64,000 nt of DNA from a virus (Duplodnaviria > Heunggongvirae > Uroviricota > Caudoviricetes), in IMG/VR virus record IMGVR_UViG_2675903278_000002; one strand, written 5' to 3'. The notes beneath the pieces are model-generated. The model did not search any database. It was not told where the DNA came from and saw only the letters and a list, made by a program, of their open reading frames with translations. The translations under genes were made by a program, and so were the position numbers. Below, piece by piece: positions 4,624-30,500 of this stretch (position 1 is the stretch's first letter; each line of letters starts with the position of its first letter).

Positions 4624-5727
4624 GTGTCACTCCTTTTGAATCGTGAGCATACGAACGGTCAGGTAACAAACGCATCGTATGCAAAAGTTATTGAGACGGT
4701 GCTTAAAAGCGGCGTGCAGGCTGATGATCGCACAGGCACTGGTACTTTAAGCACCTGCTACGTTCCCTCTTACTACATGCTTACTGGTGGGACTGTGCCG
4801 CTTATTTCTGGAAAGGCGGTAAATCTTAAGCCACTGCTTGTCGAACTTGAGTGGTATCTGAAAGGCACGGGCAACATCCAATTTCTCAAGGATAACGGCG
4901 TTAAGATTTGGGATGCATGGGCCGATGAGAATGGCGATTTGGGGCCGGTTTACGGTAAGCAGTGGCGTCGATGGGAAGATACCCGCATCGTGAGCCATAG
5001 TGAATATCTGAGCAAGATCGCTACTTTCCGTGAACGCGGGTACAAAGTCGAGGGATACCTGGGTATCAGTGAAGATCGCGTAGTGCTGTCCCGTGAAATC
5101 GATCAGCTACAGCGTATTGTCGATACACTGCGCACGAACCCTACCGATCGTCGCATCATGCTTAACGCATGGAACGTAGGCGAGCTTGAGGATATGAAAC
5201 TGCCACCTTGCCACTTTGTCTTCTCTTTGTGGAGTCGTGAGCTGGATTTTGAAACCCGTTTAACGATGGCAACTGACATTGGTCTTCAACACAGTCGCCT
5301 CGGTTATGAGTCTATCTACACCAAGATGCTATACGATCTGGAGATGGACGGCAGTGTTACTGAAACTGAACTGGATGAACTTGGAATCCCCAAACGCATC
5401 CTCAACTCCTGCCTCGTACAGCGTAGCGTAGACACTTTTGTTGGTATGCCATTCAATATTGCTGGCTATGGCATTCTCACTCATTTTCTCGCGAAGATTA
5501 CGGGTCACATGGCCGGTGCATTTGTGCATTTTGGCTTTGACGTGCATTTATACAATAACCACATGGAAAGTGTGTGTGAGCTAATGAAACGACAGGCTCC
5601 AGAGCATTCAGATCCGGTCGTTATTTTCCCTCATGAATGGTCTGAGCTGGATGATTTCAAATGGGACGATATTCTGATTCTTGGCTATGACCCTCTACCG
5701 TGGATCAAGGTTCCAGTGGCGGTGTGA
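4624..5727 (+). CDS. thyA: Thymidylate synthase homologue with two large insertions
   Basis: Motifs DRTGTGT, WADENGDLGPVYGKQWR, LPPCH, QRSVD, PFNIAGY and DVHLYNNH are present. I moved the start to GTG 4624, which has GAGG 5 nt upstream (the track starts at 4597, inside Box B). Confidence 0.85.
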   Translation: MSLLLNREHTNGQVTNASYAKVIETVLKSGVQADDRTGTGTLSTCYVPSYYMLTGGTVPLISGKAVNLKPLLVELEWYLKGTGNIQFLKDNGVKIWDAWADENGDLGPVYGKQWRRWEDTRIVSHSEYLSKIATFRERGYKVEGYLGISEDRVVLSREIDQLQRIVDTLRTNPTDRRIMLNAWNVGELEDMKLPPCHFVFSLWSRELDFETRLTMATDIGLQHSRLGYESIYTKMLYDLEMDGSVTETELDELGIPKRILNSCLVQRSVDTFVGMPFNIAGYGILTHFLAKITGHMAGAFVHFGFDVHLYNNHMESVCELMKRQAPEHSDPVVIFPHEWSELDDFKWDDILILGYDPLPWIKVPVAV

Positions 5728-5728
5728 T

Positions 5729-6142
5729 ATGGCAAGAGGTATGTATGTCTTATGCGAAATTGAAGGTGTGCTGGCAAATGCCAGCCATCGTAAATCAGTA
5801 TCTGACGCGGATGCAGGCCAGCTCATTGCCGGTGATGAACTCATTTTCCCCACCAGCCGTATGTTGCGTGGTTTTGCTCGCTCAGGGGCTGAAGTGGTGC
5901 TTATCAGTAGCCGCTCTGAAACTCTTGAAGCGCCAACTAAACGATGGCTGAAAGATTTTGGCGTTGATTATGACTGGCTTCATCTCGTACCGAATGGCAC
6001 CAGTTATGAGAAGCATATTAAGCGCACATTAGCGGAGCATAAAGGCGATCTGCTTATCGCTGCGCTGGTGCACGATCCTCGACTCCGTGCCGCTTTAGCC
6101 GACTCTCACCATCGACCGGTCATCTATGAGGTGAGCAAATGA
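5729..6142 (+). CDS. Hypothetical protein (possibly HAD-like fold, non-canonical motif I)
   Basis: ATG lies 2 nt after the thyA stop, and the stop overlaps the folA start (ATGA). MYVLCEIEGVLAN sits where HAD motif I would be but lacks DxD. Confidence 0.45.
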   Translation: MARGMYVLCEIEGVLANASHRKSVSDADAGQLIAGDELIFPTSRMLRGFARSGAEVVLISSRSETLEAPTKRWLKDFGVDYDWLHLVPNGTSYEKHIKRTLAEHKGDLLIAALVHDPRLRAALADSHHRPVIYEVSK

Positions 6143-6615
6143 AGATGATCGCTGCTGTTGGCCGTAACTATGAGATCGGCATAGCGAATGAACTCCCCTG
6201 GCGTTGTTCTACCGATCTGAAGCTATTTAAGAGACTCACCAAAAACGCCACTGTCGTTATGGGGCGTAAAACGATGGAAAGTCTCAAACGCCCTCTTCCA
6301 GAGCGTCATAACCTCGTTTTGACGCGCTCTCATGGCTTTGTACCAAATGGATTCTACCCTGCTGGTGTGGATGATGTGTTGCGATTACCAGAGCCTGTGT
6401 GGGTGATTGGCGGGGAACAAATTTACTCGCTATTCATGCCGCATGTTGAAGAGATTTGGCTCTCCCACATCGGCGTTGATGTGCCAAACGCCGATGCATT
6501 CTTCCCGGCAAGCATGATGCGTAATTTAGGCTTTGTGCCTGTTGAAACAGCTTATACCCAACGAGCCAGCGAGGAAGAGCCTGGCTTTTCGCAGATCGTA
6601 TACAGAAGGTCGTAA
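6139..6615 (+). CDS. folA: Dihydrofolate reductase
   Basis: 158 aa. Motifs IAAVGRNYEIG..LPW, VVMGRKT.ES...PLP.R.N.VLT and VIGG..IY are collinear with E. coli FolA. Confidence 0.9.
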   Translation: MKMIAAVGRNYEIGIANELPWRCSTDLKLFKRLTKNATVVMGRKTMESLKRPLPERHNLVLTRSHGFVPNGFYPAGVDDVLRLPEPVWVIGGEQIYSLFMPHVEEIWLSHIGVDVPNADAFFPASMMRNLGFVPVETAYTQRASEEEPGFSQIVYRRS

Positions 6616-13925: not shown

Positions 13926-14207
13926 ATGGCATACGGTACAGGGATTTACAACAATAAAGGAATTAACGTTACTGGCTTCCTTACTCCTATTTTTTTTCTT
14001 GATCGATTTACTGCGTCATCAGGCTCTAAGACGTACTCCAATCCGCCACCGGGTAAATCGCTACATGCCGTGTGGTCATTGATGCCTCTTAACAACGACA
14101 ACTACATTAATTTACCTGTTCCAACAGTTACTATTAATGGAAATACGGTTAGTTGGTCAAATTTATATACGGGGCTTGGTTCTTACATATACACATACTG
14201 GGGATAA
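13926..14207 (+). CDS. Hypothetical protein (AT-rich cassette)
   Basis: 93-aa ORF with SD AAGGA upstream. Confidence 0.45.
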   Translation: MAYGTGIYNNKGINVTGFLTPIFFLDRFTASSGSKTYSNPPPGKSLHAVWSLMPLNNDNYINLPVPTVTINGNTVSWSNLYTGLGSYIYTYWG

Positions 14208-14209
14208 TT

Positions 14210-14824
14210 ATGTTCGGGATGTCAATTACTCAATCAGATGGAAGTTTGTGGATGAGTCCAGAATTTACTCCGCAAAATCTGATTAATAAAGGGACAATGT
14301 CTACATCTAAAGGTTCTGTTTTTCAAACATCAATCCCATCAAACAAATCATGCTTTTTCTTCATAAAAAGCAGTAATAAGGCGAACATGATGTTTATTCA
14401 TGAGCATAGTAACGGATACAATGCTCTCAGATTGCATCAGGTAAATGGTAGCCCCGGAACAATAACAGTTTATGCTTTTTCTGATATGGTGTTACCACAT
14501 TCTGGCTATGGCATTGCCATGTATAACAGCGCAGGCGCAATGGTGTATCACGGTGAGATGATGCCCCTTGATGCGAAACTTATCACTATTTCTGACCCTC
14601 AATTTACAATAGATATGGGGTATCCATGTGCGGTAATGCCTGCTATGGTTGGGGTATATAACTATAGACGAACCGATTACGACAGACCTGTCTATGTAAC
14701 AATGACAGGTGCAACTGGAAACCAAGTATATAACGGTCAATGGTATTCCGGTAATGTCACATGGGATATTAAGAAGATTTATACAAACAAAATTCTGGTG
14801 ATAAATACCTCCAAGTATGATTAG
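14210..14824 (+). CDS. Hypothetical protein (AT-rich cassette)
   Basis: ATG lies 2 nt after the upstream stop. 204 aa. Confidence 0.5.
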   Translation: MFGMSITQSDGSLWMSPEFTPQNLINKGTMSTSKGSVFQTSIPSNKSCFFFIKSSNKANMMFIHEHSNGYNALRLHQVNGSPGTITVYAFSDMVLPHSGYGIAMYNSAGAMVYHGEMMPLDAKLITISDPQFTIDMGYPCAVMPAMVGVYNYRRTDYDRPVYVTMTGATGNQVYNGQWYSGNVTWDIKKIYTNKILVINTSKYD

Positions 14825-14887
14825 CCAATGCCTTTATTTGAAGGATTGCCTGTTTATTTCTATTTAGTACCTTTTCATTTTTGAAAT

Positions 14888-14927
14888 AATTGCACCATTA
14901 AACAAATCACTTCTTAATGGTGCAATT
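14888..14927. promoter_or_regulatory. Perfect 14-bp inverted repeat abutting a start codon
   Basis: AATTGCACCATTAA-n12-TTAATGGTGCAATT, immediately followed by ATG 14928. Confidence 0.5.
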
Positions 14928-16613
14928 ATGAATACAGCCCTTTCCATCATCGACGATGCCAACTCAAACACTGCTATCGACTATCGGCAGGAAATGAACG
15001 TCATCCACGAAATTGTGGCCGAGTGCGAGAAAGAGATCGCCTTCATGTATCAGGTACACGACTTCGTTTATGGCGACGAACGCCACAACATGATTAATCG
15101 CCTGCTGAGACTAAACCATCGACCAGATGAAGATCGCTCGCGTTTAAATCGAGGTTGGTTGGATAAAGTCGATCTGGAATGGGTGAAACAGAATATTTGG
15201 GCCGAGTACTGGAGGAAGGTCACGGACATGACTAACGTTTTGCTGATCATGCCAGCTTCCCGTCGAGATGAGTGGCGCGAGCAGTTTATAGAGGGCAAAC
15301 AGGAAGTCATCAAAACTGACAGAACCGGCTACCAGATGAAGGTTAAAGAGTTCGTTGGTGTACCGGAGTTCAAAGCAGAAACGGTCATACCCACGATGCT
15401 TAATTTGCTGAATGACAGGCACAAATATCTCTCTGAGCGCGTGTATGGCTTGTTTAAGGCGCTGAGTCCTGCGCACAAGACAAATAAGACAAACGGTTTC
15501 AGCGAACGTCTGATAATCGCTGACTGCATTTCTGATTTCTGGCGGGACAGCGTTAGTGTGAACTATCGCAAAGAGGACTATATCGACGATCTGCGTGTCT
15601 TGCTTCATTTCTTCGCGCACAAAGAATTTATTACCATCAACCGCACTGCTGAGGTGCTATCAGCTGCGTATCGGGCAAACGACTGCCAGACCGGTGACTG
15701 GATGAACGTCGATGGAAATCTAATGCGCGTGAAGATGTTCAAGAACGGCAACGTTCACTTTGAAATACATCCTGACGTGGCCTGGAAGTTGAATGAGGTG
15801 CTGGCTTACAGTATGCCTGCTGCAATCCCCGCGCCATGTCGCACCGCGCCAAAAACACGGGCACCAAAGCAGTTCGGGTTAATCCAGAAGACGATCTCCG
15901 TGCCGGTTCGCACTGCGCTTCGTGACGGGCGATTAAGCAAAGACAAAGGCGTATGGTACTTCTCTGATTCAGCTCTCCAGAAGTCGCAGGTGGAAGAGCT
16001 TGAGCGCACACTGAGCTTCATTGGCGGCGTGCAGGAGAAAAAGCACTGGCAGTTCCCGTATGAGATCGGCCATACGCTAAATACGATTGTGGCTACCGGA
16101 TTAATACCGGATACAAAATCACACCAGTTCTACCCTACCCCACGCTTGATTGCTGAGTACGTTGCCAGAGCCACTGAATTGAAGTCTGGTGAGAAGCTGC
16201 TGGAGCCTCAAGCCGGACGTGGGGATCTTCTGGCCTATATCAACGCCGATCTGGAAGATGTTACCTGCATAGAAATCGCACCTCTCTTCGCTGATATCCT
16301 GCGCGGAAAAGGGTATACGAACACGATTTGCTGCGACTTCATAAAGTGGTCTGAGGACAACGTAGGTTATCAGTTCGACAAAATCGTTATGAACCCGCCG
16401 TACTCGCTTGGTCGTCATAGAGAGCACACGCTGGCTGCGCTGGGGCATCTGAAAGTCGGCGGGCGTCTTGTAGCAGTATTGCCGGGCACTGCGCCAATAC
16501 TGGACTGGATGACGATGGATAATTACGTTTATGCCAGAGGGAAGTCGTTTACCAACGAGTTTGAAGACACAGGGATCACAGTCAGCGTATACGTTTTCAA
16601 ACGCGTTAAATGA
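14928..16613 (+). CDS. Two-domain protein: N-terminal domain of unknown function plus C-terminal SAM-dependent amino-methyltransferase (N6-A/N4-C type)
   Basis: Motif I LEPQAGRGDL and motif IV MNPPY in the last ~170 aa. Confidence 0.75.
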   Translation: MNTALSIIDDANSNTAIDYRQEMNVIHEIVAECEKEIAFMYQVHDFVYGDERHNMINRLLRLNHRPDEDRSRLNRGWLDKVDLEWVKQNIWAEYWRKVTDMTNVLLIMPASRRDEWREQFIEGKQEVIKTDRTGYQMKVKEFVGVPEFKAETVIPTMLNLLNDRHKYLSERVYGLFKALSPAHKTNKTNGFSERLIIADCISDFWRDSVSVNYRKEDYIDDLRVLLHFFAHKEFITINRTAEVLSAAYRANDCQTGDWMNVDGNLMRVKMFKNGNVHFEIHPDVAWKLNEVLAYSMPAAIPAPCRTAPKTRAPKQFGLIQKTISVPVRTALRDGRLSKDKGVWYFSDSALQKSQVEELERTLSFIGGVQEKKHWQFPYEIGHTLNTIVATGLIPDTKSHQFYPTPRLIAEYVARATELKSGEKLLEPQAGRGDLLAYINADLEDVTCIEIAPLFADILRGKGYTNTICCDFIKWSEDNVGYQFDKIVMNPPYSLGRHREHTLAALGHLKVGGRLVAVLPGTAPILDWMTMDNYVYARGKSFTNEFEDTGITVSVYVFKRVK

Positions 16614-16633
16614 TAGGTAAATACTTACCTAAT
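16613..16633. promoter_or_regulatory. Box B palindrome copy
   Basis: ATAGGTAAatacTTACCTAAT, starting within the methylase stop (TGATAGG). Confidence 0.55.
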
Positions 16634-16674
16634 TTGTGTAAGAATGTAGTTACTAAACGATAAGAGAAAAACAC

Positions 16675-17379
16675 ATGAACAACCTCCAGTTAGAGCATTT
16701 TAACGTCACAGGCCATTCTGATTTTCCTTTCAAGTTTACATTGAAAGGTTATGCAGAGGATGCGGTAGGCCAGATCATTATTGATAAAGGCATCGTTAAG
16801 TTTGAGGGGGATTTTGATGAATCCGCGAAAACATTCATAGACTTCGTTGCCAAACGTTGGAGCGAGCAATGGAAAAACCTGGAAAAGCGCGCCAATGAGT
16901 TTGATCGGTTCATGGATGCAATGGATACAGCAAAAGAGGCTCTTGATGCCGGGACTCCGTTAGATCTGGAGTCACTTTTCAACGGCGAAGTGGCCTCTGC
17001 GATGTTCGCCACCATGTTCGCGGGTGAGTTCGTCCGCAGCGGTGCCAAAAACTACCTTGAGCTGGATTACAACGTCCCTGCAATTGGCGATTTCGTCGTT
17101 ACCATCCAACGCAAAGAAGGTAAGACGCCAGGTGAACGCGTCGCAGAACTTGAGGCTGTTGTGGATCAGCGTAACGGAGAGTGTGACCGTTTGATCAACG
17201 AGCTTCATGCACTTCGGGAAGAAAGAATATGCGCGGGTAGCAATACACGTAATGCAGCGGATATCTACTTCCAGTTAGTTGAGGAATGCCAGATTCCACC
17301 AGGCGGCTCTCTTGTCGATTACGTCAGACATTTAATGACGGAAGTTAACTCCAGCCATAAAGATGGTGAGGTGCGCTGA
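16675..17379 (+). CDS. Hypothetical protein
   Basis: 234 aa. Shared leader GAGAAAAACACATG. Confidence 0.55.
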   Translation: MNNLQLEHFNVTGHSDFPFKFTLKGYAEDAVGQIIIDKGIVKFEGDFDESAKTFIDFVAKRWSEQWKNLEKRANEFDRFMDAMDTAKEALDAGTPLDLESLFNGEVASAMFATMFAGEFVRSGAKNYLELDYNVPAIGDFVVTIQRKEGKTPGERVAELEAVVDQRNGECDRLINELHALREERICAGSNTRNAADIYFQLVEECQIPPGGSLVDYVRHLMTEVNSSHKDGEVR

Positions 17380-17759
17380 TGTTTGGCATTGACGCACAGC
17401 GTATAGCCGCTTTTGCAAAAAGCCCTCTTGATAATCCCTTGTCTCGTAGTGAGCAAATGGAGCTGGCAAGGCTTTTTCTTCACATTCAAAAACAGGCAGA
17501 CGTTTTCAATAACATGCCTGATCAACCTATTCTGGATGGTCACATCCAGATGGTCATTAACAGTCATGAGAAAGGCTGGGCTGCAATCGTCCCCTGCACA
17601 ATTACATACAAGTTGGCGAAAGAGGTTCAAGAGTTTCGAAAAGTCAGCGTCGAATCAGAGTCTACCAAAGCCGCAATAAACACTCTTATTCGCATGGGGT
17701 TCACATGGGACGGTGGAGCTTACTGGCAAGCGCCTCAACCCATTTTATACGGCAATTAG
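17379..17759 (+). CDS. Hypothetical protein
   Basis: ATGA overlap with the upstream gene. Confidence 0.5.
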   Translation: MFGIDAQRIAAFAKSPLDNPLSRSEQMELARLFLHIQKQADVFNNMPDQPILDGHIQMVINSHEKGWAAIVPCTITYKLAKEVQEFRKVSVESESTKAAINTLIRMGFTWDGGAYWQAPQPILYGN

Positions 17760-17897
17760 GCGCTACAAATCCTTCTGCATGAATAAATAAAGGCCATAAC
17801 TTATGGCCTTAAATAAATTGTTTTCTACATTTTCTTATTTGTGAAAATAAACCAGCACTTGGTAGTGCTTATGTAACAGCAAAGAAGAGAAAAACAC

Positions 17898-18353
17898 ATG
17901 AGTAACAAAATCGAAAATCCCGTAGTTCTCATTCACAAGCGCGAGAACCACGACTCCTATGCGGTGGCGATCACCAATGGGAGTCACGATTTTTACGATG
18001 GCCTGCTAATGGCCTCAGTGTCGCCTGATGAGGCAGACAACTCTTTTGCCGTCTTCGCTATGGTTGGTTACTACATGGCTGCTGAAATTGAGAAGTTGCG
18101 GGCGCAGAGAGACGCATTAGCGGCGGAGAATGCAGCCCTGAAAGAATCTGAGCGAGCATTCGATGCGATGTGTGCCGAGGAACACGGAGATAATTGGGTT
18201 AGCGAATTAACGGAGACTCCAGCCACCGATGCTTTTCTGGCTGAAGTACGTGCGCAGGGCGTGGAGATGTTTGCTGAGTGCGCATACACACTTGAACATC
18301 ATGATCACGCAGTAGCTTTTGCCGCTGAGCTTCGTACAGGAAATAAACAGTGA
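17898..18353 (+). CDS. Ead/Ea22-like protein
   Basis: Coiled-coil KLRAQRDALAAENAALKE plus ETPATDAFLAEVRAQGVE, which I recall from lambdoid Ea22-like proteins. Shared leader GAGAAAAACACATG. Confidence 0.5.
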   Translation: MSNKIENPVVLIHKRENHDSYAVAITNGSHDFYDGLLMASVSPDEADNSFAVFAMVGYYMAAEIEKLRAQRDALAAENAALKESERAFDAMCAEEHGDNWVSELTETPATDAFLAEVRAQGVEMFAECAYTLEHHDHAVAFAAELRTGNKQ

Positions 18354-18916
18354 ATGAGATTTACTACCTGACGTTACGTGAACGTTATTCACCAAAACCA
18401 GCGCCTAAATGCTCTGTTTGTGGCGAGGAAATGTCAATACAGCGCATATCTGGAGCACATGTTGTTTATGCCTGTTCCGGTGAGAGTGATGACGGATATT
18501 TTAAGATAGGGCGTACTTTTGCAGATGAACATTATGAAAAATCACGCGTAACAGTAGTTGATGATAGTGATCCCGATGTGATTGCACTGCTGGACGAACT
18601 GGATAAAAGACAGCAACACATCCGACGTCTTGAGCAGGAGAACGTAGAGATGGCCCTAACGCTTGAGAAACTGCGTGTTGAGCTGGAGACCGTTAAACAG
18701 CGGGAAAAGGATCTGTTTATGGAAAATGTTCGACTTAAGTCAGGTATAGCAGGTCTGATACACCTCGGTATTCGATATGCGAATGTCGAAGTCATGAAAA
18801 TAGCTGGAGATGCCCAGCTTTCTACTCCCTGTACTGACAGCATCATAAACAGTATTGCATCAGGCGTTTTCACCAAAGAGGGTCAGCATTATGAGAACAG
18901 TAGAAGTTCGCGCTGA
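18350..18916 (+). CDS. Ead/Ea22-like protein (Cys-pair plus coiled coil)
   Basis: GTGA overlap with the upstream gene. CSVCGEEM...YAC, followed by a leucine-rich coiled coil. Confidence 0.45.
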   Translation: MNEIYYLTLRERYSPKPAPKCSVCGEEMSIQRISGAHVVYACSGESDDGYFKIGRTFADEHYEKSRVTVVDDSDPDVIALLDELDKRQQHIRRLEQENVEMALTLEKLRVELETVKQREKDLFMENVRLKSGIAGLIHLGIRYANVEVMKIAGDAQLSTPCTDSIINSIASGVFTKEGQHYENSRSSR

Positions 18917-19076
18917 AGATGTAACCCCAGGTGATGTGGTCATAACATCTAAAGGCAAACGATGTGCGGTTAAATCTTTCTGGATGGAAGGTGACAAAGT
19001 GACTCTGTTCGGTACGGATGGTTCCGAAACGGATTATGACTACGACGAATTGCTTGTTGTTGAGAGAGCTGCCTAA
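18891..19076 (+). CDS. Small hypothetical protein
   Basis: ATG 18891 has GAGGG 8 nt upstream. 61 aa. Confidence 0.4.
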   Translation: MRTVEVRAEDVTPGDVVITSKGKRCAVKSFWMEGDKVTLFGTDGSETDYDYDELLVVERAA

Positions 19077-19834
19077 TGACCACCTTAACCAAAGAACAGT
19101 TAATCTCCCATGCACGCGAAAGCGTTAGTTATCTGGAAGACTTGAAAGGACGTGTTAGTAAAGAAGGTGCGGACTGCAAAGTTGTTATTGAGATGGTTGC
19201 ACGAGATCTAAAACTGGCACGAATTGCACTGGCCTCGCTTGAGGCAAAACCAATAGGTGCATTCCACATTGCAGAACAGCAAGTTGACGGCACAAGTGAC
19301 TACCTCAAGGATGGAGAATGGCCTATTGATAATGGGACAATTGAAGTATACGCCGCCCCTCCAGTGCCAGTAGTACCGGAAGAAAAACCAATGCCTAACG
19401 CTCTAAGCATGCTTGAAAGAGAGATCACACAACTGATTGGTGATGCGCAGGAAGCCACTGTTACTGGCTATGAGTTAATCGCTGAAGCTTGGCGTTTGAT
19501 GGATGGACAAGACCCTAAAACCAGCGATTGGCATAGCAAGGCTTCGAAGTATTTAAATTCCAATATTGTAGAAAAAGTTGATGATGACCGTATTGAGGCT
19601 GTTAAGGCCGTTTTGCGTAGACTGGCTGGCAACCATCCGGATTTTCCGGATAGTTCCCAACAATCGCCCAAGAAAAGCGTAAAAACCACTCTGGAAAGAG
19701 GCTATCTTGAGGCCGCATTAAAGATTAAGCCGGGCCATACGCTAGGCGTCATTGATGCCATGTTGGTTCATGAAATGGCGAAGGCTTTATTGCCGCTGGT
19801 GGCTGATAAAATTCCGAATAAGGCCGATATCTGA
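19076..19834 (+). CDS. Hypothetical protein
   Basis: TAATG coupling to the upstream gene. 252 aa. Confidence 0.5.
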   Translation: MTTLTKEQLISHARESVSYLEDLKGRVSKEGADCKVVIEMVARDLKLARIALASLEAKPIGAFHIAEQQVDGTSDYLKDGEWPIDNGTIEVYAAPPVPVVPEEKPMPNALSMLEREITQLIGDAQEATVTGYELIAEAWRLMDGQDPKTSDWHSKASKYLNSNIVEKVDDDRIEAVKAVLRRLAGNHPDFPDSSQQSPKKSVKTTLERGYLEAALKIKPGHTLGVIDAMLVHEMAKALLPLVADKIPNKADI

Positions 19835-19845
19835 TCACCATGCTA

Positions 19846-19876
19846 AAATCCCCTCAATTCACAGAGGGGATTTTTG
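19846..19876 (+). terminator. Rho-independent terminator
   Basis: 10-bp stem AAATCCCCTC/GAGGGGATTT followed by TTTTT. Confidence 0.8.
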
Positions 19877-19879
19877 TAT

Positions 19880-20146
19880 ATGTTGCATAGAGTTTTATGG
19901 AAAAGCGTTATTGTCGGCGCGATACTGGCTATATCTGGGTGTGCAATGGTGCAATACAACGACGGTGAAAAGGTAAGCATACAGTCAGATGGTTGGTATG
20001 GCCTGGATAGCCTGCAAAAAACCGCAGATAAAGCCTGTCAGCAATATGGGAAGTCTAAAGCAGTATATCAGCATAGCGCGAACGCTAACCCTAATCTTGC
20101 GCCCGGTTCGGGTGTTCAGAATACCATCTGGAAATGTGAGCCTTAA
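19880..20146 (+). CDS. Small lipoprotein
   Basis: Signal peptide with lipobox [12 protein letters not shown]. 88 aa from ATG 19880. Confidence 0.6.
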
Positions 20147-20148
20147 AT

Positions 20149-20400
20149 ATGAGCGACTGGAATATTGCAGCTAAAAGTCAGGAAGAACGGGATAAGGTTA
20201 ACGTTGATCTGGCTGCCAGCGGTGTGGCGTACAAAGAGCGATTGAACATACCTGTCATAGCTGAACAGGTAGCCCGCGAGCAACCAGAGAACCTGCGCAC
20301 CTATTTCATGGAACGGTTACGGCACTACCGGCAGTTAAGCCTCCAGTTGCCAAAAGGAAGCCATCCGGTGTATCAGAACGAGGATGCACCAAGAAAATAA
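20149..20400 (+). CDS. Hypothetical protein
   Basis: 83-aa ORF starting 2 nt after the upstream stop. Confidence 0.5.
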
Positions 20401-20407
20401 CGGCAAG

Positions 20408-20776
20408 ATGGGGAAGACATTAAACATGCTTAACTATCACGACAACACGCGTTCTATGCAGACAATCCGCACCAATACAGCGGTGGTCGATAGCTTTCCT
20501 GTACATACTCAAGGCCGTGAAGATACCGTGGAAGTGCGACGCATGTTGTGTCGCCGGTCACCAGGCCACCAGCACTTCATCGTAACGTTTAAAAGCGATG
20601 TAGAGCGCGCCGAGAAAATCTCTAACTCCACATCTCTGGTTAGTCCGTTGGCGGAGGTTATTGTGCGCAACAATAAGGCGCGCTTTGTCCTTGAGGAGCA
20701 TCATTCTGATTTTAATGAAAAAATTGAGTCAAGCATTTTGCAATATATGAATGGCAAGTTCACGCCACCAATGTGA
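20408..20776 (+). CDS. Hypothetical protein
   Basis: The start is uncertain (20384, 20408 or 20426). Confidence 0.4.
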   Translation: MGKTLNMLNYHDNTRSMQTIRTNTAVVDSFPVHTQGREDTVEVRRMLCRRSPGHQHFIVTFKSDVERAEKISNSTSLVSPLAEVIVRNNKARFVLEEHHSDFNEKIESSILQYMNGKFTPPM

Positions 20777-20837
20777 TTAGCCCCCAGCGTGGCGCGCCTG
20801 CAAACCCCGCTTTCACAAACTATGCCTTTTCAATGTA

Positions 20838-20857
20838 TACTGTATGAATAAACAGTA
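20838..20857. promoter_or_regulatory. LexA (SOS) box
   Basis: TACTGTATGAATAAACAGTA matches CTGT-N8-ACAG and overlaps a TATACT -10-like hexamer. Confidence 0.85.
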
Positions 20858-20875
20858 TCATTGAGGTAAAACGCT

Positions 20876-21265
20876 ATGGGCTTCCCTTCTCCTGCGGCGG
20901 ATTATGCAGAGAGCCGTATTTCTCTTGATCAGCAACTAATCAGACATCCTTCAGCGACCTACTTCATGCGGGCAGCTGATAGTCATCATCGTGAGGGAAT
21001 ATTACAGGGTGCATTGCTGGTGGTCGATTCCTCACTTACCCCGGTTGATGGTTCTCTGCTTGTATGCGCTCTGGATGGGGAATATCGCGTAAAAAGATAC
21101 CGGAAGTACCCACGTCAGCATCTGGAGGATTTAAGAACCGGTAAGAAGGAAGCATTGCCAAAGGATGACGATGGATGCACGGGCAGCAATGCCGTGTTTG
21201 GTGTGATCACTCACATTATCAACGACGCAAGAAGTGGCGAGTTTGATGATTGTCCCGTGATGTAG
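20876..21265 (+). CDS. umuD: UmuD'-like protein (pre-truncated UmuD homologue, P1 HumD-like)
   Basis: Begins MGFPSPAADY..., which matches E. coli UmuD from its Cys24/Gly25 cleavage site onward. HPSATYF is conserved, and the Ser (ADS) and Lys (VKR) positions are retained. Confidence 0.85.
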   Translation: MGFPSPAADYAESRISLDQQLIRHPSATYFMRAADSHHREGILQGALLVVDSSLTPVDGSLLVCALDGEYRVKRYRKYPRQHLEDLRTGKKEALPKDDDGCTGSNAVFGVITHIINDARSGEFDDCPVM

Positions 21266-21276
21266 GAGAACTGATT

Positions 21277-21301
21277 AGGCGGTGCATTGCACCGCCTTTT
21301 T
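21277..21301 (+). terminator. Rho-independent terminator
   Basis: GGCGGTGC-att-GCACCGCC followed by TTTTT. It ends 1 nt before the mrp stop codon. Confidence 0.8.
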
Positions 21302-21302
21302 A

Positions 21303-22403
21303 TCACACTGCGCGGAATGCGATTTCGCCAGGTATTACTTCACCTTGCCAATACATTTGGGCAGCAACGCGATCTGCGAGGTCACGATAAATAGCCGTAA
21401 ATTCGCTATCTGGACGACTAATAACGGTTGGTGTTCCGTTATCCAGATCTTCACGAAGAGAGATATGAAGTGGCATTTGGCCTAACAACTGCGTGTTGTA
21501 TTTCTCGGCCAGTTTCTGTGCGCCACCGGTGCCAAAAATTGGCTCGTGATGACCGCAGTTACTGCAAATATGCACACTCATGTTTTCGACGATACCCAGT
21601 ACCGGCACTTCGACTTTTTCGAACATCACAATGCCTTTCTTCGCATCGATCAGCGCGATGTCTTGCGGCGTAGTTACCACAACCGCACCAGTTACAGGAA
21701 TGTTCTGCGCCAGCGTCAACTGAATATCACCAGTGCCCGGCGGCATATCGAGAACGAGATAGTCCAGATCAGGCCATAGAGTTTCCTGCAACATCTGCAT
21801 CAGCGCCTTGCTGGCCATCGGTCCACGCCACACCATTGCATTGTCGTCGGTGACCAGATAACCAATAGAGTTGGTTGCCAGGCCATGAGACATGATAGGT
21901 GCCATGTGAGTACCGTCCGGTGAGGTTGGACGTTGGTTTTCCGCGCCCAGCATGGTTGGAATTGATGGACCATAGATATCGGCATCCAAAATACCAACTT
22001 TCGCACCTTCAGCAGCCAACGCCAGTGCCAGATTTACCGCCGTGGAGGATTTACCTACGCCGCCCTTGCCTGAGCTGACGGCGATAATGTTCTTAACGCC
22101 ATTAATGCCTGGTTGGTTTTTGACGCGCTTAAGCGTGGCAATGTTGTACGACAGCTTCCAGTCAATAGCCTTTGCGCCAGTGATACGGAGCAGATCACCA
22201 CTACATTGCTCTTTCAGGTCTTCAAAAGGCTTATTCCACACGAAAGGCATGATTAGTTCGACATGCAGTGTGTCATCCATCAACGCAACATGGTGTAACG
22301 CTTTAAGCGTAGTCAGGTTGTGTTTCAGGGTTGGGTGCTGAAAATTAGCCAGCGTACCGGCTACCATTGCTCTCAGGGCATCCGGCGATTTGGACTCGCT
22401 CAT
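21303..22403 (-). CDS. mrp: Fe-S cluster carrier ATPase Mrp/ApbC (host-type)
   Basis: 366 aa. Nearly collinear and identical to E. coli Mrp as I recall it (AVSSGKGGVGKSS, CSNCGHHEPIFG). Confidence 0.95.
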   Translation of the reverse strand: MSESKSPDALRAMVAGTLANFQHPTLKHNLTTLKALHHVALMDDTLHVELIMPFVWNKPFEDLKEQCSGDLLRITGAKAIDWKLSYNIATLKRVKNQPGINGVKNIIAVSSGKGGVGKSSTAVNLALALAAEGAKVGILDADIYGPSIPTMLGAENQRPTSPDGTHMAPIMSHGLATNSIGYLVTDDNAMVWRGPMASKALMQMLQETLWPDLDYLVLDMPPGTGDIQLTLAQNIPVTGAVVVTTPQDIALIDAKKGIVMFEKVEVPVLGIVENMSVHICSNCGHHEPIFGTGGAQKLAEKYNTQLLGQMPLHISLREDLDNGTPTVISRPDSEFTAIYRDLADRVAAQMYWQGEVIPGEIAFRAV

Positions 22404-22560
22404 CCCGTCTCCTTTATTTTAATTTGCGCAATTGTCGCCTTGTAGTGTACTCCAGCTACGACATTTAATCATTTATGAGAAATGCTGTTATCACATGGCA
22501 GACATAAGGCCATTTTGTTACTATCAAGCCCCTTTTCACTACAAAGAAGTAATGCCTACT

Positions 22561-24594
22561 ATGACCCAAGTCGCGAAGAAAATTCTGGTGACGTGCGCGC
22601 TGCCGTACGCTAACGGCTCAATCCACCTCGGCCATATGCTGGAGCACATCCAGGCTGATGTCTGGGTTCGTTACCAGCGAATGCGCGGCCACGAGGTTAA
22701 TTTCATCTGTGCCGACGATGCCCACGGTACGCCGATCATGCTGAAAGCACAGCAGCTTGGTATCACACCGGAGCAGATGATTGGCGAAATGAGTCAGGAA
22801 CACCAGACTGATTTCGCAGGCTTTAACATCAGCTATGACAACTATCACTCGACGCACAGCGAAGAGAACCGTCAGTTGTCTGAGCTTATCTATACTCGCC
22901 TGAAAGAGAACGGTTTTATTAAAAACCGCACTATCTCTCAGTTGTACGACCCGGAAAAAGGCATGTTCCTGCCGGATCGTTTTGTAAAAGGCACCTGCCC
23001 GAAATGTAAAGCGCCAGATCAATACGGCGATAACTGTGAAGTCTGCGGCGCAACATATAGCCCGACTGAATTGATCGAGCCGAAATCGGTGGTTTCTGGC
23101 GCTACCCCGGTAATGCGTGATTCCGAACACTTCTTCTTTGATCTGCCTTCTTTCAGCGAAATGTTGCAGGCATGGACCCGCAGCGGCGCGTTGCAGGAGC
23201 AGGTGGCGAACAAAATGCAGGAATGGTTTGAATCCGGCCTGCAACAGTGGGATATCTCCCGAGATGCGCCTTACTTCGGTTTTGAAATTCCGAACGCGCC
23301 GGGCAAATATTTCTACGTCTGGCTGGACGCGCCGATTGGCTACATGGGTTCCTTCAAGAATCTGTGCGACAAGCGCGGCGATACCACCAGCTTCGATGAA
23401 TACTGGAAGAAAGACTCCACCGCCGAGCTGTACCACTTCATCGGTAAAGATATTGTTTACTTCCACAGCCTGTTCTGGCCTGCCATGCTGGAAGGCAGCA
23501 ACTTCCGCAAGCCGACCAACCTGTTTGTTCACGGCTATGTGACGGTGAACGGCGCGAAGATGTCCAAGTCTCGCGGCACCTTTATTAAAGCCAGCACCTG
23601 GCTGAATCATTTTGACGCCGACAGCCTGCGTTACTACTACACTGCGAAACTCTCTTCGCGCATTGATGATATCGATCTCAACCTGGAGGATTTCGTTCAG
23701 CGCGTGAATGCCGATATCGTGAACAAAGTGGTTAACCTGGCCTCCCGTAATGCAGGCTTTATCAACAAGCGTTTTGACGGCGTGCTGGCAAGCGAACTGG
23801 CTGACCCGCAACTGTACAAAACCTTTACTGATGCCGCTGAAGTGATTGGCGAAGCATGGGAAAGCCGCGAATTTGGTAAAGCTATCCGTGAAATCATGGC
23901 ATTGGCTGACCTGGCTAACCGCTATGTCGATGAACAGGCTCCGTGGGTGGTGGCGAAGCAGGAAGGACGCGATGCCGATCTGCAGGCGATTTGCTCTATG
24001 GGCATTAACCTGTTCCGCGTGCTGATGACGTACCTGAAGCCGGTACTGCCGAAACTGACTGAACGTGCAGAAGCATTCCTGAATACAGAACTGACCTGGG
24101 ATGGTATCCAGCAACCGCTGCTGGGCCATAAAGTAAATCCGTTCAAGGCACTGTATAACCGCATCGATATGAAGCAGGTTGAAGCACTGGTGGAAGCATC
24201 CAAAGAAGAAGTGAAAGCCACAGCCGCACCGGTAACTGGCCCACTGGCTGACGACCCGATTCAGGAAACTATCACCTTTGACGACTTCGCCAAAGTTGAC
24301 CTGCGCGTGGCGCTGATTGAAAACGCAGAGTTTGTAGAAGGTTCTGACAAACTGCTTCGCCTGACGCTGGATCTCGGTGGTGAAAAGCGTAATGTCTTCT
24401 CAGGCATCCGTTCCGCTTATCCAGATCCACAGGCACTGATTGGTCGTCACACCATTATGGTGGCTAACCTGGCACCACGTAAAATGCGCTTCGGTATCTC
24501 TGAAGGCATGGTGATGGCTGCTGGCCCCGGCGGGAAAGATATCTTCCTGTTAAGCCCGGATGCTGGTGCTAAACCTGGCCACCAGGTTAAGTAA
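22561..24594 (+). CDS. metG: Methionyl-tRNA synthetase (host-type, full length)
   Basis: 677 aa from ATG 22561 ([25 protein letters not shown]..., KMSKS). Only scattered substitutions relative to E. coli K-12 MetG as I recall it. The track ORF start at 22432 is upstream read-in. Confidence 0.97.
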
Positions 24595-24613
24595 TTAAAC
24601 AACCTCTCTTCGC

Positions 24614-24641
24614 AATGCCCGGCAACACGCCGGGCATTTTC
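24614..24641 (+). terminator. Rho-independent terminator of metG
   Basis: ATGCCCGGC-aacac-GCCGGGCAT followed by TTTT. Confidence 0.85.
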
Positions 24642-24677
24642 ATATAGACACAATCCCTTCTGATTTACACAGTACCT

Positions 24678-24692
24678 AAAACAATTTGTTTT
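24678..24692. promoter_or_regulatory. Box A palindrome copy
   Basis: AAAACAATTTGTTTT. The extended context AACAATTTGTTTTCTGCCTT is shared with the copy at 29301. Confidence 0.6.
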
Positions 24693-24727
24693 CTGCCTTT
24701 TGTTGATGGAGATAATAAACCACATAA

Positions 24728-24743
24728 GAAAACAACTTGTTTT
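24728..24743. promoter_or_regulatory. Box A palindrome copy
   Basis: GAAAACAACTTGTTTT, 12 nt upstream of ATG 24756. Confidence 0.6.
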
Positions 24744-24755
24744 GGAGTGGTTGAA

Positions 24756-25055
24756 ATGTTGAACATTACCCAAGCCTACCAGGTGGCATTGATCAGCTCA
24801 TCTCATACATCAGAGGAAGATGCTCGCCGATTCATGATCGCAAGCAATGAGCTGGATTGGGTTTCACAAATTGAGTACGGTTGCATTGTCCACGCCGGGT
24901 TACAGGACGATGACTGGAAAGATGAGTTGCGTCGATATGGTATATCCGAGGGCGCGATTGCGAACATTCAGAAAGTACTTGATGTAGGCTTTGACTCTGT
25001 ACATTTTGATTGTGGTGCACCGGTCGTTGAAGGGCTAGAGTGCTGGCAATGGTAA
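24756..25055 (+). CDS. Hypothetical protein
   Basis: ATG 24756 has GGAG 8 nt upstream. 99 aa. Confidence 0.5.
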   Translation: MLNITQAYQVALISSSHTSEEDARRFMIASNELDWVSQIEYGCIVHAGLQDDDWKDELRRYGISEGAIANIQKVLDVGFDSVHFDCGAPVVEGLECWQW

Positions 25056-25091
25056 TCCGGCAATCGCTTCATACTAGACAACGGAGAATTT

Positions 25092-25277
25092 ATGCTTAAA
25101 GAAGACTCATATCTACTAAAGGCGCTTGAAATGCGTGGCGTTGAACCTACAGTGAAAAACGCTCACGATATCTACCTTCAGTTTTCACCGGAGCTGAAAC
25201 GGTTCATAAATCAATACGGGGTTAATGACTCAAGTGTTAAAGCAATGATAGATGATGAATTAGACCATCTCATCTAA
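25092..25277 (+). CDS. Small hypothetical protein
   Basis: 61 aa. SD GGAGA upstream. Confidence 0.45.
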   Translation: MLKEDSYLLKALEMRGVEPTVKNAHDIYLQFSPELKRFINQYGVNDSSVKAMIDDELDHLI

Positions 25278-25429
25278 TCGTTTCCTATGATAATGGTTTT
25301 CACTTTGAGATTGTTATTTTTCATAGCTAAAGCTGATGTTTGTGGAAGGTGGATTGATAAACGGATGCGTATTTAGGTTATACAAGTGAGAAAATTGATA
25401 ATATATAAACGCGATTTTTATGTGATGGA

Positions 25430-25999
25430 ATGGATGTGATGGAAACCCAGAACCAACAAACAAAACCTCTGAATAACATTTATGCGTGGATTCTAGCGTT
25501 CATGCCTTTCTTCTTTGGAGTATCGCCGGAAGAGTATACCAATTACGCTATTATAATTGGGGGTGTAACTACCATCGGTTTGTTAGTAGCTGACAGAATG
25601 GCTCTATCGGAGTCTGGCTGTGAACCACCTTCAATTCTATGGGGGGTATTCCTCCTGCCTGTCTATCTCTGGAAGCGCGCGACTATTACAAAAGGCAGCA
25701 GAGTGCCATTTATCATAATCGTTGCGTCGCTGGCTTGGATTATCTTCATCGGCATCCCACACAAGGACGAGGTTGCTCTTGAAGAAGCAGCCTGCCCTCT
25801 CGTGACAACTATTCTGAAAGAGAATAACGGTTCGACTGCACCAAAATGTATGAAGGTGACAATAGAGGACAAGGTGACGGATAAGTTCTATAGAGCAACG
25901 GCTACACTAGACAATGGTAATGACATTAACATTACTCTGGAACTTACCGGCGACAGGAACTTCTACGTCCGTGTTCCAAATGTTTATCTGAACAACTAA
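25430..25999 (+). CDS. Membrane protein (about 4 TM segments plus soluble C-terminal domain)
   Basis: Hydrophobic segments IYAWILAFMPFFF, AIIIGGVTTIGLLV, ILWGVFLLPVYLW and FIIIVASLAWIIFIGI. Lies in AT-rich surroundings. Confidence 0.5.
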   Translation: MDVMETQNQQTKPLNNIYAWILAFMPFFFGVSPEEYTNYAIIIGGVTTIGLLVADRMALSESGCEPPSILWGVFLLPVYLWKRATITKGSRVPFIIIVASLAWIIFIGIPHKDEVALEEAACPLVTTILKENNGSTAPKCMKVTIEDKVTDKFYRATATLDNGNDINITLELTGDRNFYVRVPNVYLNN

Positions 26000-26099
26000 C
26001 GGTTGCAACTTATTGATAATGGCGGTCACAATTTGATTCTTTTCTATAAGAACCCGTTGATCGCCACTACTCCCCTCCCATACCAGCAATCACATCATT

Positions 26100-26870
26100 A
26101 AATATCAATAGGTTATGGTTGTTTATACAAATAAGAAAACAACTAAATAACAGATCAACGAAACGTCAACGCTTTCACCCGATTTGGTCTAAAAAATTGA
26201 CGTTTTCACACATCACTTCTTATACCCGTAACTCTACGCAGCAGACATCGCCACAGCGTCCAATTTTCACCACAGACGACCCAACACACTACCAACAAAA
26301 ACACACGCTCAAAATCGCTCCCGTTGCGTTACACAACCATATAAACAACTTATTTTCAGGCATAACAAAACAACTAAATAACACACATGCCATTTCCAAA
26401 AACAACCAACCTCTTTATGGCAGGCTACCGAAAAGACCCACCTCTTCTCCCCAGGCTACCGGACAACCAACCTAACTTTCACAGGCAATCCGAAAACATT
26501 CATACGCGCGATACCCACGACACGCCATTACCCAAACAGCGAAGAAACACCAGAATCACTGAACCCCCAACGAAGCCTGTAACCGCAAGGCTTCTCTCAA
26601 TCCCAAAAGACACGAAACAGAACAATCACGGGAAACGCCATTACCCAACACACGAATAACTACAAAAGCCCTTCACGCACTCCAGACAAACAACTCAAAC
26701 ACAATAACGAAAGGAATCGCCCACCTGCCATTACTCCATACACGGAGAAGAACAATCACCAAAACGACGAGAACACCCCATAGAAGAACCACCGCAAAAC
26801 GAACGAAACCACATACACCGACAGAGAGAACAACACACCCAATTCACCAACAGAATTAGTCGCCGTATAG
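26100..26870 (+). other. A+C-skewed, G/T-poor non-coding tract
   Basis: By hand count, about 100 G in 780 nt, and 70-80% A+C in the lines I counted. Track ORFs here translate to low-complexity T/P/Q/N/H sequence. Confidence 0.6.
26421..26510 (+). repeat. Three tandem ~30-bp repeats (CAGGCTACCGnAnAAnCCnACCT...)
   Basis: Units start at 26421, 26452 and 26482. A related triplet lies at 30416-30500. Confidence 0.6.
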
Positions 26871-26981
26871 AACGTTCTGGAAGGAGTGAGTGTTAACGTC
26901 CATAGAGAGGTTGAGACAGATAAAACACGAATAAAACACAACATGTATAGCGAAGAAGCCAGGTATGTATAAGTGGGGAGA

Positions 26982-27007
26982 GAAGGAGGGGTGTCGCCTC
27001 CTTTTTC
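26982..27007 (+). terminator. Rho-independent terminator closing the A+C-rich tract
   Basis: AAGGAGG-ggtgtcg-CCTCCTT followed by TTT. Confidence 0.6.
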
Positions 27008-28396: not shown

Positions 28397-28411
28397 GAAA
28401 ACAAGTTGTTT
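28397..28411. promoter_or_regulatory. Box A palindrome copy
   Basis: GAAAACAAGTTGTTT, 11 nt upstream of ATG 28423. Confidence 0.6.
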
Positions 28412-30370: not shown

Positions 30371-30394
30371 AAGGCCACCAATGCTGGTGGCCTT
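30371..30394 (+). terminator. Conserved hairpin (perfect 10-bp stem, no U-tract)
   Basis: AAGGCCACCA-atgc-TGGTGGCCTT. Confidence 0.45.
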
Positions 30395-30415
30395 AAATGA
30401 CCATCCTGTTTCCCG

Positions 30416-30500
30416 CAGGCTAAAAACACCAACCTCTTACCTCCAGGCAACCGACAAACCCACCTGTTCCCGTCCGGCTACCGCAACTTTCCACTTTGAC
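30416..30500 (+). repeat. Three tandem ~29-bp repeats related to those at 26421-26510
   Basis: CAGGCTAAAAACACCAACCT.., CAGGCAACCGACAAACCCACCT.., CCGGCTACCGCAACTTTCCAC. Units start at 30416, 30444 and 30474. Confidence 0.55.

Follow-up and report, generated by a model that had tools for sequence, protein, structure and literature searches.

Cyrano, also known as pLF82, is a phage-plasmid that forms virions, is induced by ciprofloxacin and is maintained at ~5.5 copies per cell (PMC9928086). One of its listed morons is a homologue of mrp, CYRAN_99, which was entered under the name 'septum site-determining protein MinD' (PMC9928086). Here, we analyse a 64,000-nucleotide stretch (the window) of the virus record IMGVR_UViG_2675903278_000002, in which a sequence-only reading had noticed complete host-type copies of mrp (apbC) and of metG, the gene for methionyl-tRNA synthetase (MetRS), lying between phage genes at 21266-24677. 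We propose that this mrp-metG block is selectively maintained auxiliary cargo on an SSU5-like temperate phage-plasmid of Escherichia, captured once and long ago, a reading that we hold to be reasonably probable. Annotations of the block's genes exist in hundreds of public records, as well as for Cyrano, and both host-derived phage cargo and mobile second aminoacyl-tRNA synthetase (aaRS) genes are already known. In the literature on the SSU5-like, pHCM2, pLF82, p09EL50 and pECOH89 elements, with most subscription journals outside the search, we found no discussion of metG or mrp as host-derived genes. As far as we found, three points are undescribed: that the block marks a lineage, that mrp and metG have discordant histories, and that metG is a gene-conversion mosaic.

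Positions 20000-26000 of the window are 100% identical to the E. coli plasmid pM-64-197 (NZ_MT773672.1), which is 111 kb long, IncFIB-typed and non-mobilizable. It encodes repA, ParB-type genes, nrdAB, thyA, dhfr, dnaE, a primase, a helicase, a ligase, an integrase and tail genes, and carries ISEcp1-blaCTX-M-64. pM-64-197 is an SSU5-like phage-plasmid of E. coli: it has its backbone in common with known members, it combines replication and partition genes with phage structural genes, and a close relative forms virions. The palindrome GAAAACAAnTTGTTT, called Box A in the sequence-only reading, occurs on both sides of the block, and both flanks therefore belong to one element. Together with the identity to pM-64-197, this bears out the earlier view that phage DNA of a single SSU5/pHCM2-type element surrounds the block. 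In composition, the block (51% G+C) stands out from its flanks (45-47%).

Both genes are complete, as had been noticed. MetRS, a class I aaRS of the dimeric E. coli type, scores 1019.8 bits against the NCBIfam equivalog NF001100 (MetG; cutoff 587), covering profile positions 3-676 of 676, and Mrp scores 759.3 bits against the equivalog NF008669 (ApbC; cutoff 348), covering positions 5-369 of 369. The motifs are unbroken in both proteins: in MetRS these are HLGH at 22, KMSKS at 333 and the zinc knuckles CPKC at 146 and CEVC at 159, and in Mrp the deviant Walker A sequence GKGGVGKS at 112 and the cluster-binding CxxC, as CSNC, at 280. MetRS has the C-terminal tRNA-binding and dimerisation domain (PF01588 at 581-674, TIGR00399 at 543-677), Mrp matches the structure entry PDB 8zkc (E = 5e-236), and the Pfam architectures of both proteins are the expected ones. 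The longest metG open reading frame (ORF) begins at a TTG at 22432, with the ATG at 22561. The metG product is thus predicted to be an ordinary, apparently active second MetRS, and Mrp an ordinary, apparently active Fe-S cluster carrier, neither with a hint of a new activity. The MinD label of CYRAN_99 (OV696614) is a misannotation, the protein being an ApbC equivalog.

How widespread is the block? The backbone gene of the DUF4942 family is present in 557 plasmid records (Escherichia/Shigella 211, Klebsiella 185, Enterobacter 81, Salmonella 47, Citrobacter 24 and Cronobacter 6). Plasmid-type mrp-metG is confined to Escherichia/Shigella, where about nine in ten of these backbone records carry it. 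It was not found in the Klebsiella, Salmonella, Enterobacter or Citrobacter plasmid records with the backbone, and the few Salmonella/Klebsiella matches to the block that were listed are 82-84% identical and lie on chromosome-like records. A second MetRS on a mobile element had been considered unusual; in the Escherichia clade of the SSU5-like family, a plasmid-borne one is the norm and not a rarity. Altogether 208 plasmid records match the block, 189 at at least 95% identity plus one E. marmotae plasmid at 94.8%, and nearly all matches at or above 95% are on 100-125 kb non-mobilizable plasmids of E. coli, Shigella, E. albertii, E. fergusonii and E. marmotae. Complete E. coli genomes, 5426 in number, hold 224 plasmid-borne copies (~4%), and the chromosomal copy is kept in every genome. 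Three sequenced phages, Cyrano, PhiR41_1 and CMS-2020a, also carry the block at 96-98% identity, all in the order humD-mrp-metG.

This distribution bears on whether the arrangement could have arisen in assembly, as a chimera, or could be the native locus inside the remnant of a chromosomal prophage, both of which the sequence-only reading had named as ways in which it could be wrong. The junctions recur, identical or nearly so, in ~160-220 complete genomes that were assembled independently, and again in three phage genomes. Of the complete E. coli genomes, 163 cover the right junction (end of metG, spacer and cassette) in full, and all fully covering records among those listed are plasmid-sized; the chromosomes among the records listed match only over the last 56 nt of metG (21% of the query). 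In K-12, the neighbours of the native mrp-metG locus are yehE and yehF and not phage genes. We regard either artefact as next to impossible.

For evolutionary comparison, nine plasmid or phage copies were used, with K-12 and Citrobacter werkmanii as references. Relative to K-12, metG is 94.1% identical in nucleotides and 98.8% in amino acids (8 of 677 residues differ), with a non-synonymous divergence (dN) of 0.006, and mrp is 82.3% and 94.8% identical, with a dN of 0.030. The synonymous divergence (dS) from the chromosomal copy, a comparison that had been suggested earlier, is 0.29 for metG and 1.59 for mrp when K-12 is the reference. The description of both genes as carrying only scattered substitutions thus holds for the proteins and fails for the DNA. 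As a yardstick, dS between K-12 and C. werkmanii is 1.20 for mrp and 0.74 for metG. Among the chromosomal loci from the contig scan the closest match to mrp is that of C. werkmanii (82.7%, against 82.3% for K-12), and the plasmid mrp lies about as far from E. coli as the genes of Citrobacter or Salmonella do. The G+C content at third codon positions (GC3) is 0.52 in plasmid mrp, versus 0.62 in K-12 mrp, and 0.61 in plasmid metG. Within Mrp, 14 of the 21 residues that differ from K-12 fall in the N-terminal 86; in MetRS the differences are mostly ancestral enterobacterial residues (e.g. T275/T276), away from the catalytic motifs. With a dS of ~1.6 from K-12 in mrp, the block copy is therefore not derived from the present host, and the relic of aberrant excision or transduction that had been offered as one explanation is tenable only as an ancient origin.

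The Mrp protein is the same in eight of the nine copies, and pairs of mrp copies differ by 9-35 synonymous and 0-2 nonsynonymous changes; between metG copies, the dN/dS ratio (omega) is 0.005-0.04. Both genes are under strong purifying selection. One could still suppose that the block has no function, having been left behind by a single aberrant recombination or transduction and then passed on neutrally by descent. Some relatives do lack it, plasmid metG is weakly transcribed in LF82 lysogens, and to our knowledge no known phage function requires MetRS or Mrp. However, both frames are intact in almost all of ~200 copies, the few nonsynonymous differences in mrp stand against many synonymous ones, and the block has been retained while both of its neighbours were repeatedly exchanged in a recombination-prone island. 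We therefore consider a neutral passenger unlikely. A selected function is the best supported of the three meanings proposed in the sequence-only reading, given retention in about nine in ten backbones amid this shuffling and an omega of about zero.

In the plasmid copies of metG, plasmid-type tracts alternate with E. coli-type ones. K-12 and the majority of the plasmid copies disagree at 101 sites; across these, single copies hold K-12 alleles in long uninterrupted runs, and metG of a Shigella sonnei plasmid matches K-12 without a difference for 344 nt (approximate P = 3e-6). In the window, positions 23386-23760 of metG are 96-98.4% identical to E. coli chromosomes and positions 23761-24594 are 90-95% identical. 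The intergenic region between the two genes has 0-1 differences among eight of the nine plasmid copies and was never swapped for the E. coli type. The E. coli-type tracts indicate gene conversion from the host metG. Such contiguous tracts record real recombination between plasmid and chromosome, and metG is ~94% identical to the host gene over 2 kb; both would be in keeping with a block selected as a homology arm, serving RecA-dependent integration or the mobilising or transducing of DNA at mrp-metG. That part of the earlier homology-arm proposal stands. Yet no cointegrate, with the plasmid junction on a chromosome, was seen among the right-junction records of complete E. coli genomes listed, a genome offers essentially one chromosomal mrp-metG place, and mrp, at 82% identity, is a poor substrate for recombination. 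In addition, homology alone does not need intact frames with an omega of about zero, and the element already has a replicon, ParB-type genes and an integrase. As the reason for keeping the block, a homology arm seems to us improbable.

The region in which the block lies is variable, and its borders can be placed closely (Table 1). In pNT1F34-108k (L085) the backbone DUF4942 gene leads almost straight to the cassette at 24679: window 14000-17105 aligns to L085 2850-5955 and window 24679-25277 to L085 6001-6599, ~45 nt apart, with everything from 17106 to 24678 missing. pTB212 keeps humD and has a DUF4145 gene in the mrp-metG slot. These two natural relatives live without the block, as would befit dispensable, moron-like cargo. 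pHCM2 and one Klebsiella relative have unrelated cargo in the corresponding island and no mrp-metG, and among metG-bearing plasmids the left neighbour may be humD, a truncated humD, an unrelated gene or a host-type der. In the window plasmid it is humD, with its stop codon at 21263-21265. The hot-humD left flank is ~90% identical in nucleotides to phage P1, and the neighbourhood is therefore mosaic; with hot-humD on an SSU5-type backbone, modules have evidently passed between the two main phage-plasmid families of E. coli.

On the left, a single base separates the hairpin and T-tract after humD, which end at 21301, from the mrp stop codon at 21303-21305, so that the abruptness previously remarked on is confirmed. 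The metG-bearing plasmids that have other left neighbours share only about the last 10 nt (CCTTTTTA) of 21277-21301, and the left edge of the block is therefore within ~10 nt of the mrp stop. On the right, chromosomal homology stops at 24595. A hairpin, GCCCGGC-AACAC-GCCGGGC, follows at 24617-24635 and is in turn followed by ATTTTCAT; a consensus terminator scan missed it because its T-tract is short. The hairpin is at the position typical of chromosomal terminators, yet its sequence is not homologous to that of the K-12 terminator. The idea of a retained native E. coli terminator is thus rejected at the sequence level, and only its position survives. Likewise, the intergenic region is native in being homologous to chromosomal ones, but it is not of the K-12 type. 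The spacer at 24595-24678 is kept in all metG-bearing relatives compared and is missing from the empty-site plasmids. The stretch common to all carriers thus runs from ~10 nt past the mrp stop to ~84 nt past the metG stop, just before the palindrome cassette. As had been reported, no flanking direct repeats, insertion sequence (IS) element or integrase were seen at the block borders.

The palindrome GAAAACAAnTTGTTT has 20 matches in the window at up to one mismatch, versus 0.09 expected. Its sites include 2317, 12539, 13268, 17811, 24677-24693 (24677/24679), 24728, 26343 and 27913, and further ones are at 28397, 29300, 30050, 30535, 39652 and 39677. It lies upstream of many small early ORFs and is probably the operator of a phage regulator. 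These sites appear to mark cassette boundaries where cargo modules have been exchanged, and the mrp-metG block is one cassette of a recombination-prone cargo region made of repeated operator/promoter units.

Table 1. Features in and around the mrp-metG block (window coordinates)
Feature	Position	Strand	Description
Variable accessory island	17106..24678		ead/Ea22-like genes, P1-type hot and humD, mrp-metG; absent from pNT1F34-108k
hot	20149..20400	plus	Homologue of DNA polymerase III theta subunit; NF008207 104.7 bits, PF06440
humD	20876..21265	plus	UmuD'-like translesion polymerase subunit; HumD equivalog NF051876 219.7 bits, cutoff 120
Terminator-like hairpin and T-tract after humD	21277..21301	plus	9-bp stem with 7 GC pairs, then TTTTT
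mrp/apbC	21303..22403	minus	366 aa, intact; Fe-S cluster carrier P-loop NTPase, NUBPL-type
Divergent mrp-metG intergenic region	22404..22560		Homologous to chromosomal ones, nearer the Citrobacter type than the K-12 type
metG	22561..24594	plus	677 aa from ATG, intact; oriented as the flanking phage early genes, mrp opposite
Block-specific downstream spacer	24595..24678	plus	Contains terminator-like hairpin
Backbone operator/promoter cassette	24679..24746	plus	Two copies of the AAACAAnTTGTTT palindrome; backbone homology resumes here on the right
First backbone ORF right of block	24747..25055	plus	102 aa, DUF5983 family, PF19419 48.9 bits; in empty-site relatives pTB212 (L084) and pNT1F34-108k (L085)

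Several observations concern the neighbourhood itself. The DUF4145 gene of pTB212 is at 5436-6179 (L084), on the minus strand between humD and the cassette, and a gene for the M subunit of a type I restriction-modification system lies a few kb upstream of it. Three phage-plasmids of the SSU5-like family have a full-length host-type der, for the ribosome-biogenesis GTPase Der (EngA), directly to the left of mrp-metG: the E. marmotae plasmid NZ_CP146383.1 (L086 2271-3743), NZ_CP148383.1 and NZ_CP072690.1. Among the plasmid-collection records listed, the chromosome-sized E. coli ones match this der at ~92% identity. With der, the same slot has captured another essential gene related to translation, though in fewer plasmids. 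To the right of the block, the plus strand is nearly free of G over ~700 nt (26150-26870), with a GC skew of -0.31 and an AT skew of +0.35 over 26001-27000, and the pM-64-197 annotation has no coding sequence across it. Imperfect ~30-nt repeats (ACCNACCTCTT...CAGGCTACCG) lie inside this stretch and recur near 30400 (26399-26495; 30394-30487), and the stretch is kept at 94% in Cyrano. Candidate explanations for it are a non-coding RNA, a leader and a binding array. An Rfam scan of the window gave no family at or above the gathering threshold. Separately, the record CP170191.1 (L005), labelled as the chromosome of Enterobacter hormaechei strain B56, has metG and mrp DNA 100% identical to E. coli K-12 MG1655, which suggests that it is mislabelled or contaminated.

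In light of the block being probable selected cargo, how might it have arisen, and what might it do? Most likely, there was a single ancient capture from an enterobacterial chromosome into the variable early/accessory island. The captured module would have comprised chromosome-derived mrp/apbC, the native divergent intergenic region, metG and a terminator, and its source would be a lineage outside present-day Escherichia, or else the capture would be old enough for mrp to have drifted. Selection would then have retained the block throughout the Escherichia/Shigella branch of the family. From the ~94% identity of plasmid metG to the host gene, we infer repeated recombination with the chromosomal gene, which would keep the plasmid copy Escherichia-like, whereas mrp would have become too divergent to recombine and would have drifted to ~82% identity and a lower GC3. 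In LF82 lysogens, expression of CYRAN_99 (mrp) is 92, against a prophage median of ~10 (9-fold). Transcribed in lysogens in the manner of a moron, mrp may have an auxiliary Fe-S carrier role, and metG probably adds to the capacity for charging Met-tRNA at times of higher demand or failing host supply, as in lytic growth or stress. The identity of the genes, their context and distribution, the purifying selection and the metG mosaic are observed directly, whereas the single ancient capture, enzymatic activity and a physiological benefit are predictions.

Several points weigh against this proposal. CYRAN_100 (metG) has an expression of 16 in the LF82 lysogen, ~1.6-fold the prophage background, and plasmid metG falls in macrophages while humD is strongly induced. 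The low omega of metG stems in part from imported chromosomal sequence that had already been purified. A few family members, pNT1F34-108k and pTB212 among them, do without the block. No donor lineage was identified in the contig scan, whose matches were all chromosomal loci, or in a protein search over 90%-identity clusters, which could resolve nothing closer than ~95% in amino acids; the divergence of mrp is compatible with a distant donor or with long residence and compositional drift. Finally, the prevalence figures come from database records that are biased to clinical and livestock isolates. We also considered that read-through from humD drives metG, and rejected it for the SOS-only condition: in LF82, humD rises to log2 11-12 in macrophages from ~7 in LB, and metG goes down.

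Might the second synthetase instead counter an attack on translation? On pM-64-197, outside the window, there is a DUF1778/GNAT toxin-antitoxin pair (L093 32818-33616) whose toxin matches AtaT structures (best 6gts, 1.4e-79; 6gtp and 7chd at ~2.6e-78 to 3.1e-78), slightly better than KacT. The codes 6gtp and 7chd occur in the AtaT paper, which describes acetylation of Met-tRNAfMet among other aminoacyl-tRNAs (PMC7595197). Extra MetRS and Mrp, with Der in a few elements, could then buffer translation against toxins or defences that deplete Met-tRNA, one candidate being the element's own AtaT-like toxin, and the host-type der beside mrp-metG in three related plasmids would fit. However, this argument is one of co-occurrence, the specificity of AtaT for aminoacyl-tRNAs is broad (PMC7595197), and more MetRS would not obviously reverse acetylation. 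Nor does the plasmid supply a tRNA-Met as a partner for MetRS: there is no such gene in the 64-kb window or on the rest of pM-64-197, whose three tRNA genes are for Ser, Thr and Asn. The link between the toxin and the plasmid MetRS is speculative, and we judge such a counter-measure quite improbable. A broader version has a small chance of being correct: that plasmid metG is a mobile allele in continuous two-way exchange with the chromosomes of E. coli, Shigella, E. albertii, E. fergusonii and E. marmotae, and that, with mrp and in some cases der, it forms a phage-carried translation-maintenance module. Under attack on Met-tRNA charging, of which AtaT-type toxins and host shut-off would be examples, this module would shield the lysogen or the synthesis of phage proteins.

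Resistance through acquisition of a second aaRS gene is known, and plasmid metG could likewise provide a drug- or toxin-resistant synthetase, as the plasmid-borne MupA provides a resistant isoleucyl-tRNA synthetase (IleRS). NCBIfam has dedicated MupA/MupB models, and blaCTX-M-64 is on the same plasmid. Against this, the protein is 98.8% identical to K-12 MetRS, with few differences, which leaves only a dosage effect. A MupA-like resistance-type aaRS was rejected on sequence, as there is no marked divergence at the inhibitor-binding site, and we think resistance very improbable.

Selectively maintained cargo remains our preferred reading, and it has wider consequences. About 4% of complete E. 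coli genomes have a second, plasmid-borne gene for an essential tRNA synthetase. If this copy is active, metG is neither strictly single-copy nor bound to the chromosome in these strains, which bears on essentiality screens, metG-linked antibiotic tolerance and MetRS inhibitors. The contrast between a metG kept host-like and an mrp that drifted is a natural example of sequence identity gating gene conversion between a mobile element and a chromosome. In addition, the block offers an easy way to recognise the Escherichia branch of the SSU5-like phage-plasmids, which also spread CTX-M beta-lactamases.

How does the locus compare with known systems? The group of Cyrano/pLF82, pECOH89, p09EL50 and PhiR41_1 is like the window element in having the same backbone and humD-mrp-metG at 96-98% identity, whereas pM-64-197 differs in its blaCTX-M-64 and in its neighbouring cassettes. 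The type members SSU5 and pHCM2 share the backbone, including the DUF4942 gene (~90%), thyA, dhfr, rnhA and dam, and have a variable island in the corresponding place, downstream of the DUF4942 gene; pHCM2 has other cargo there in place of mrp-metG, and SSU5 itself was not among the phage matches to the block region of the window. As with phage morons and auxiliary metabolic genes, the block is host-derived, lies in a variable region and is not required for the phage cycle, being dispensable in natural variants; it also has a putative regulatory region and terminator of its own. The synthetases of giant viruses are reportedly anciently diverged (PMC11304981). The block is unlike these and the synthetases of large phages, in that its enzyme is nearly identical to that of the host, is carried on a ~110-kb temperate phage-plasmid and is kept close to the host gene by gene conversion. 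The IleRS enzymes MupA and MupB resemble plasmid metG as second essential synthetases on mobile elements; they are highly divergent from the housekeeping enzyme, whereas the plasmid MetRS is 98.8% identical to its counterpart and has unchanged catalytic motifs.

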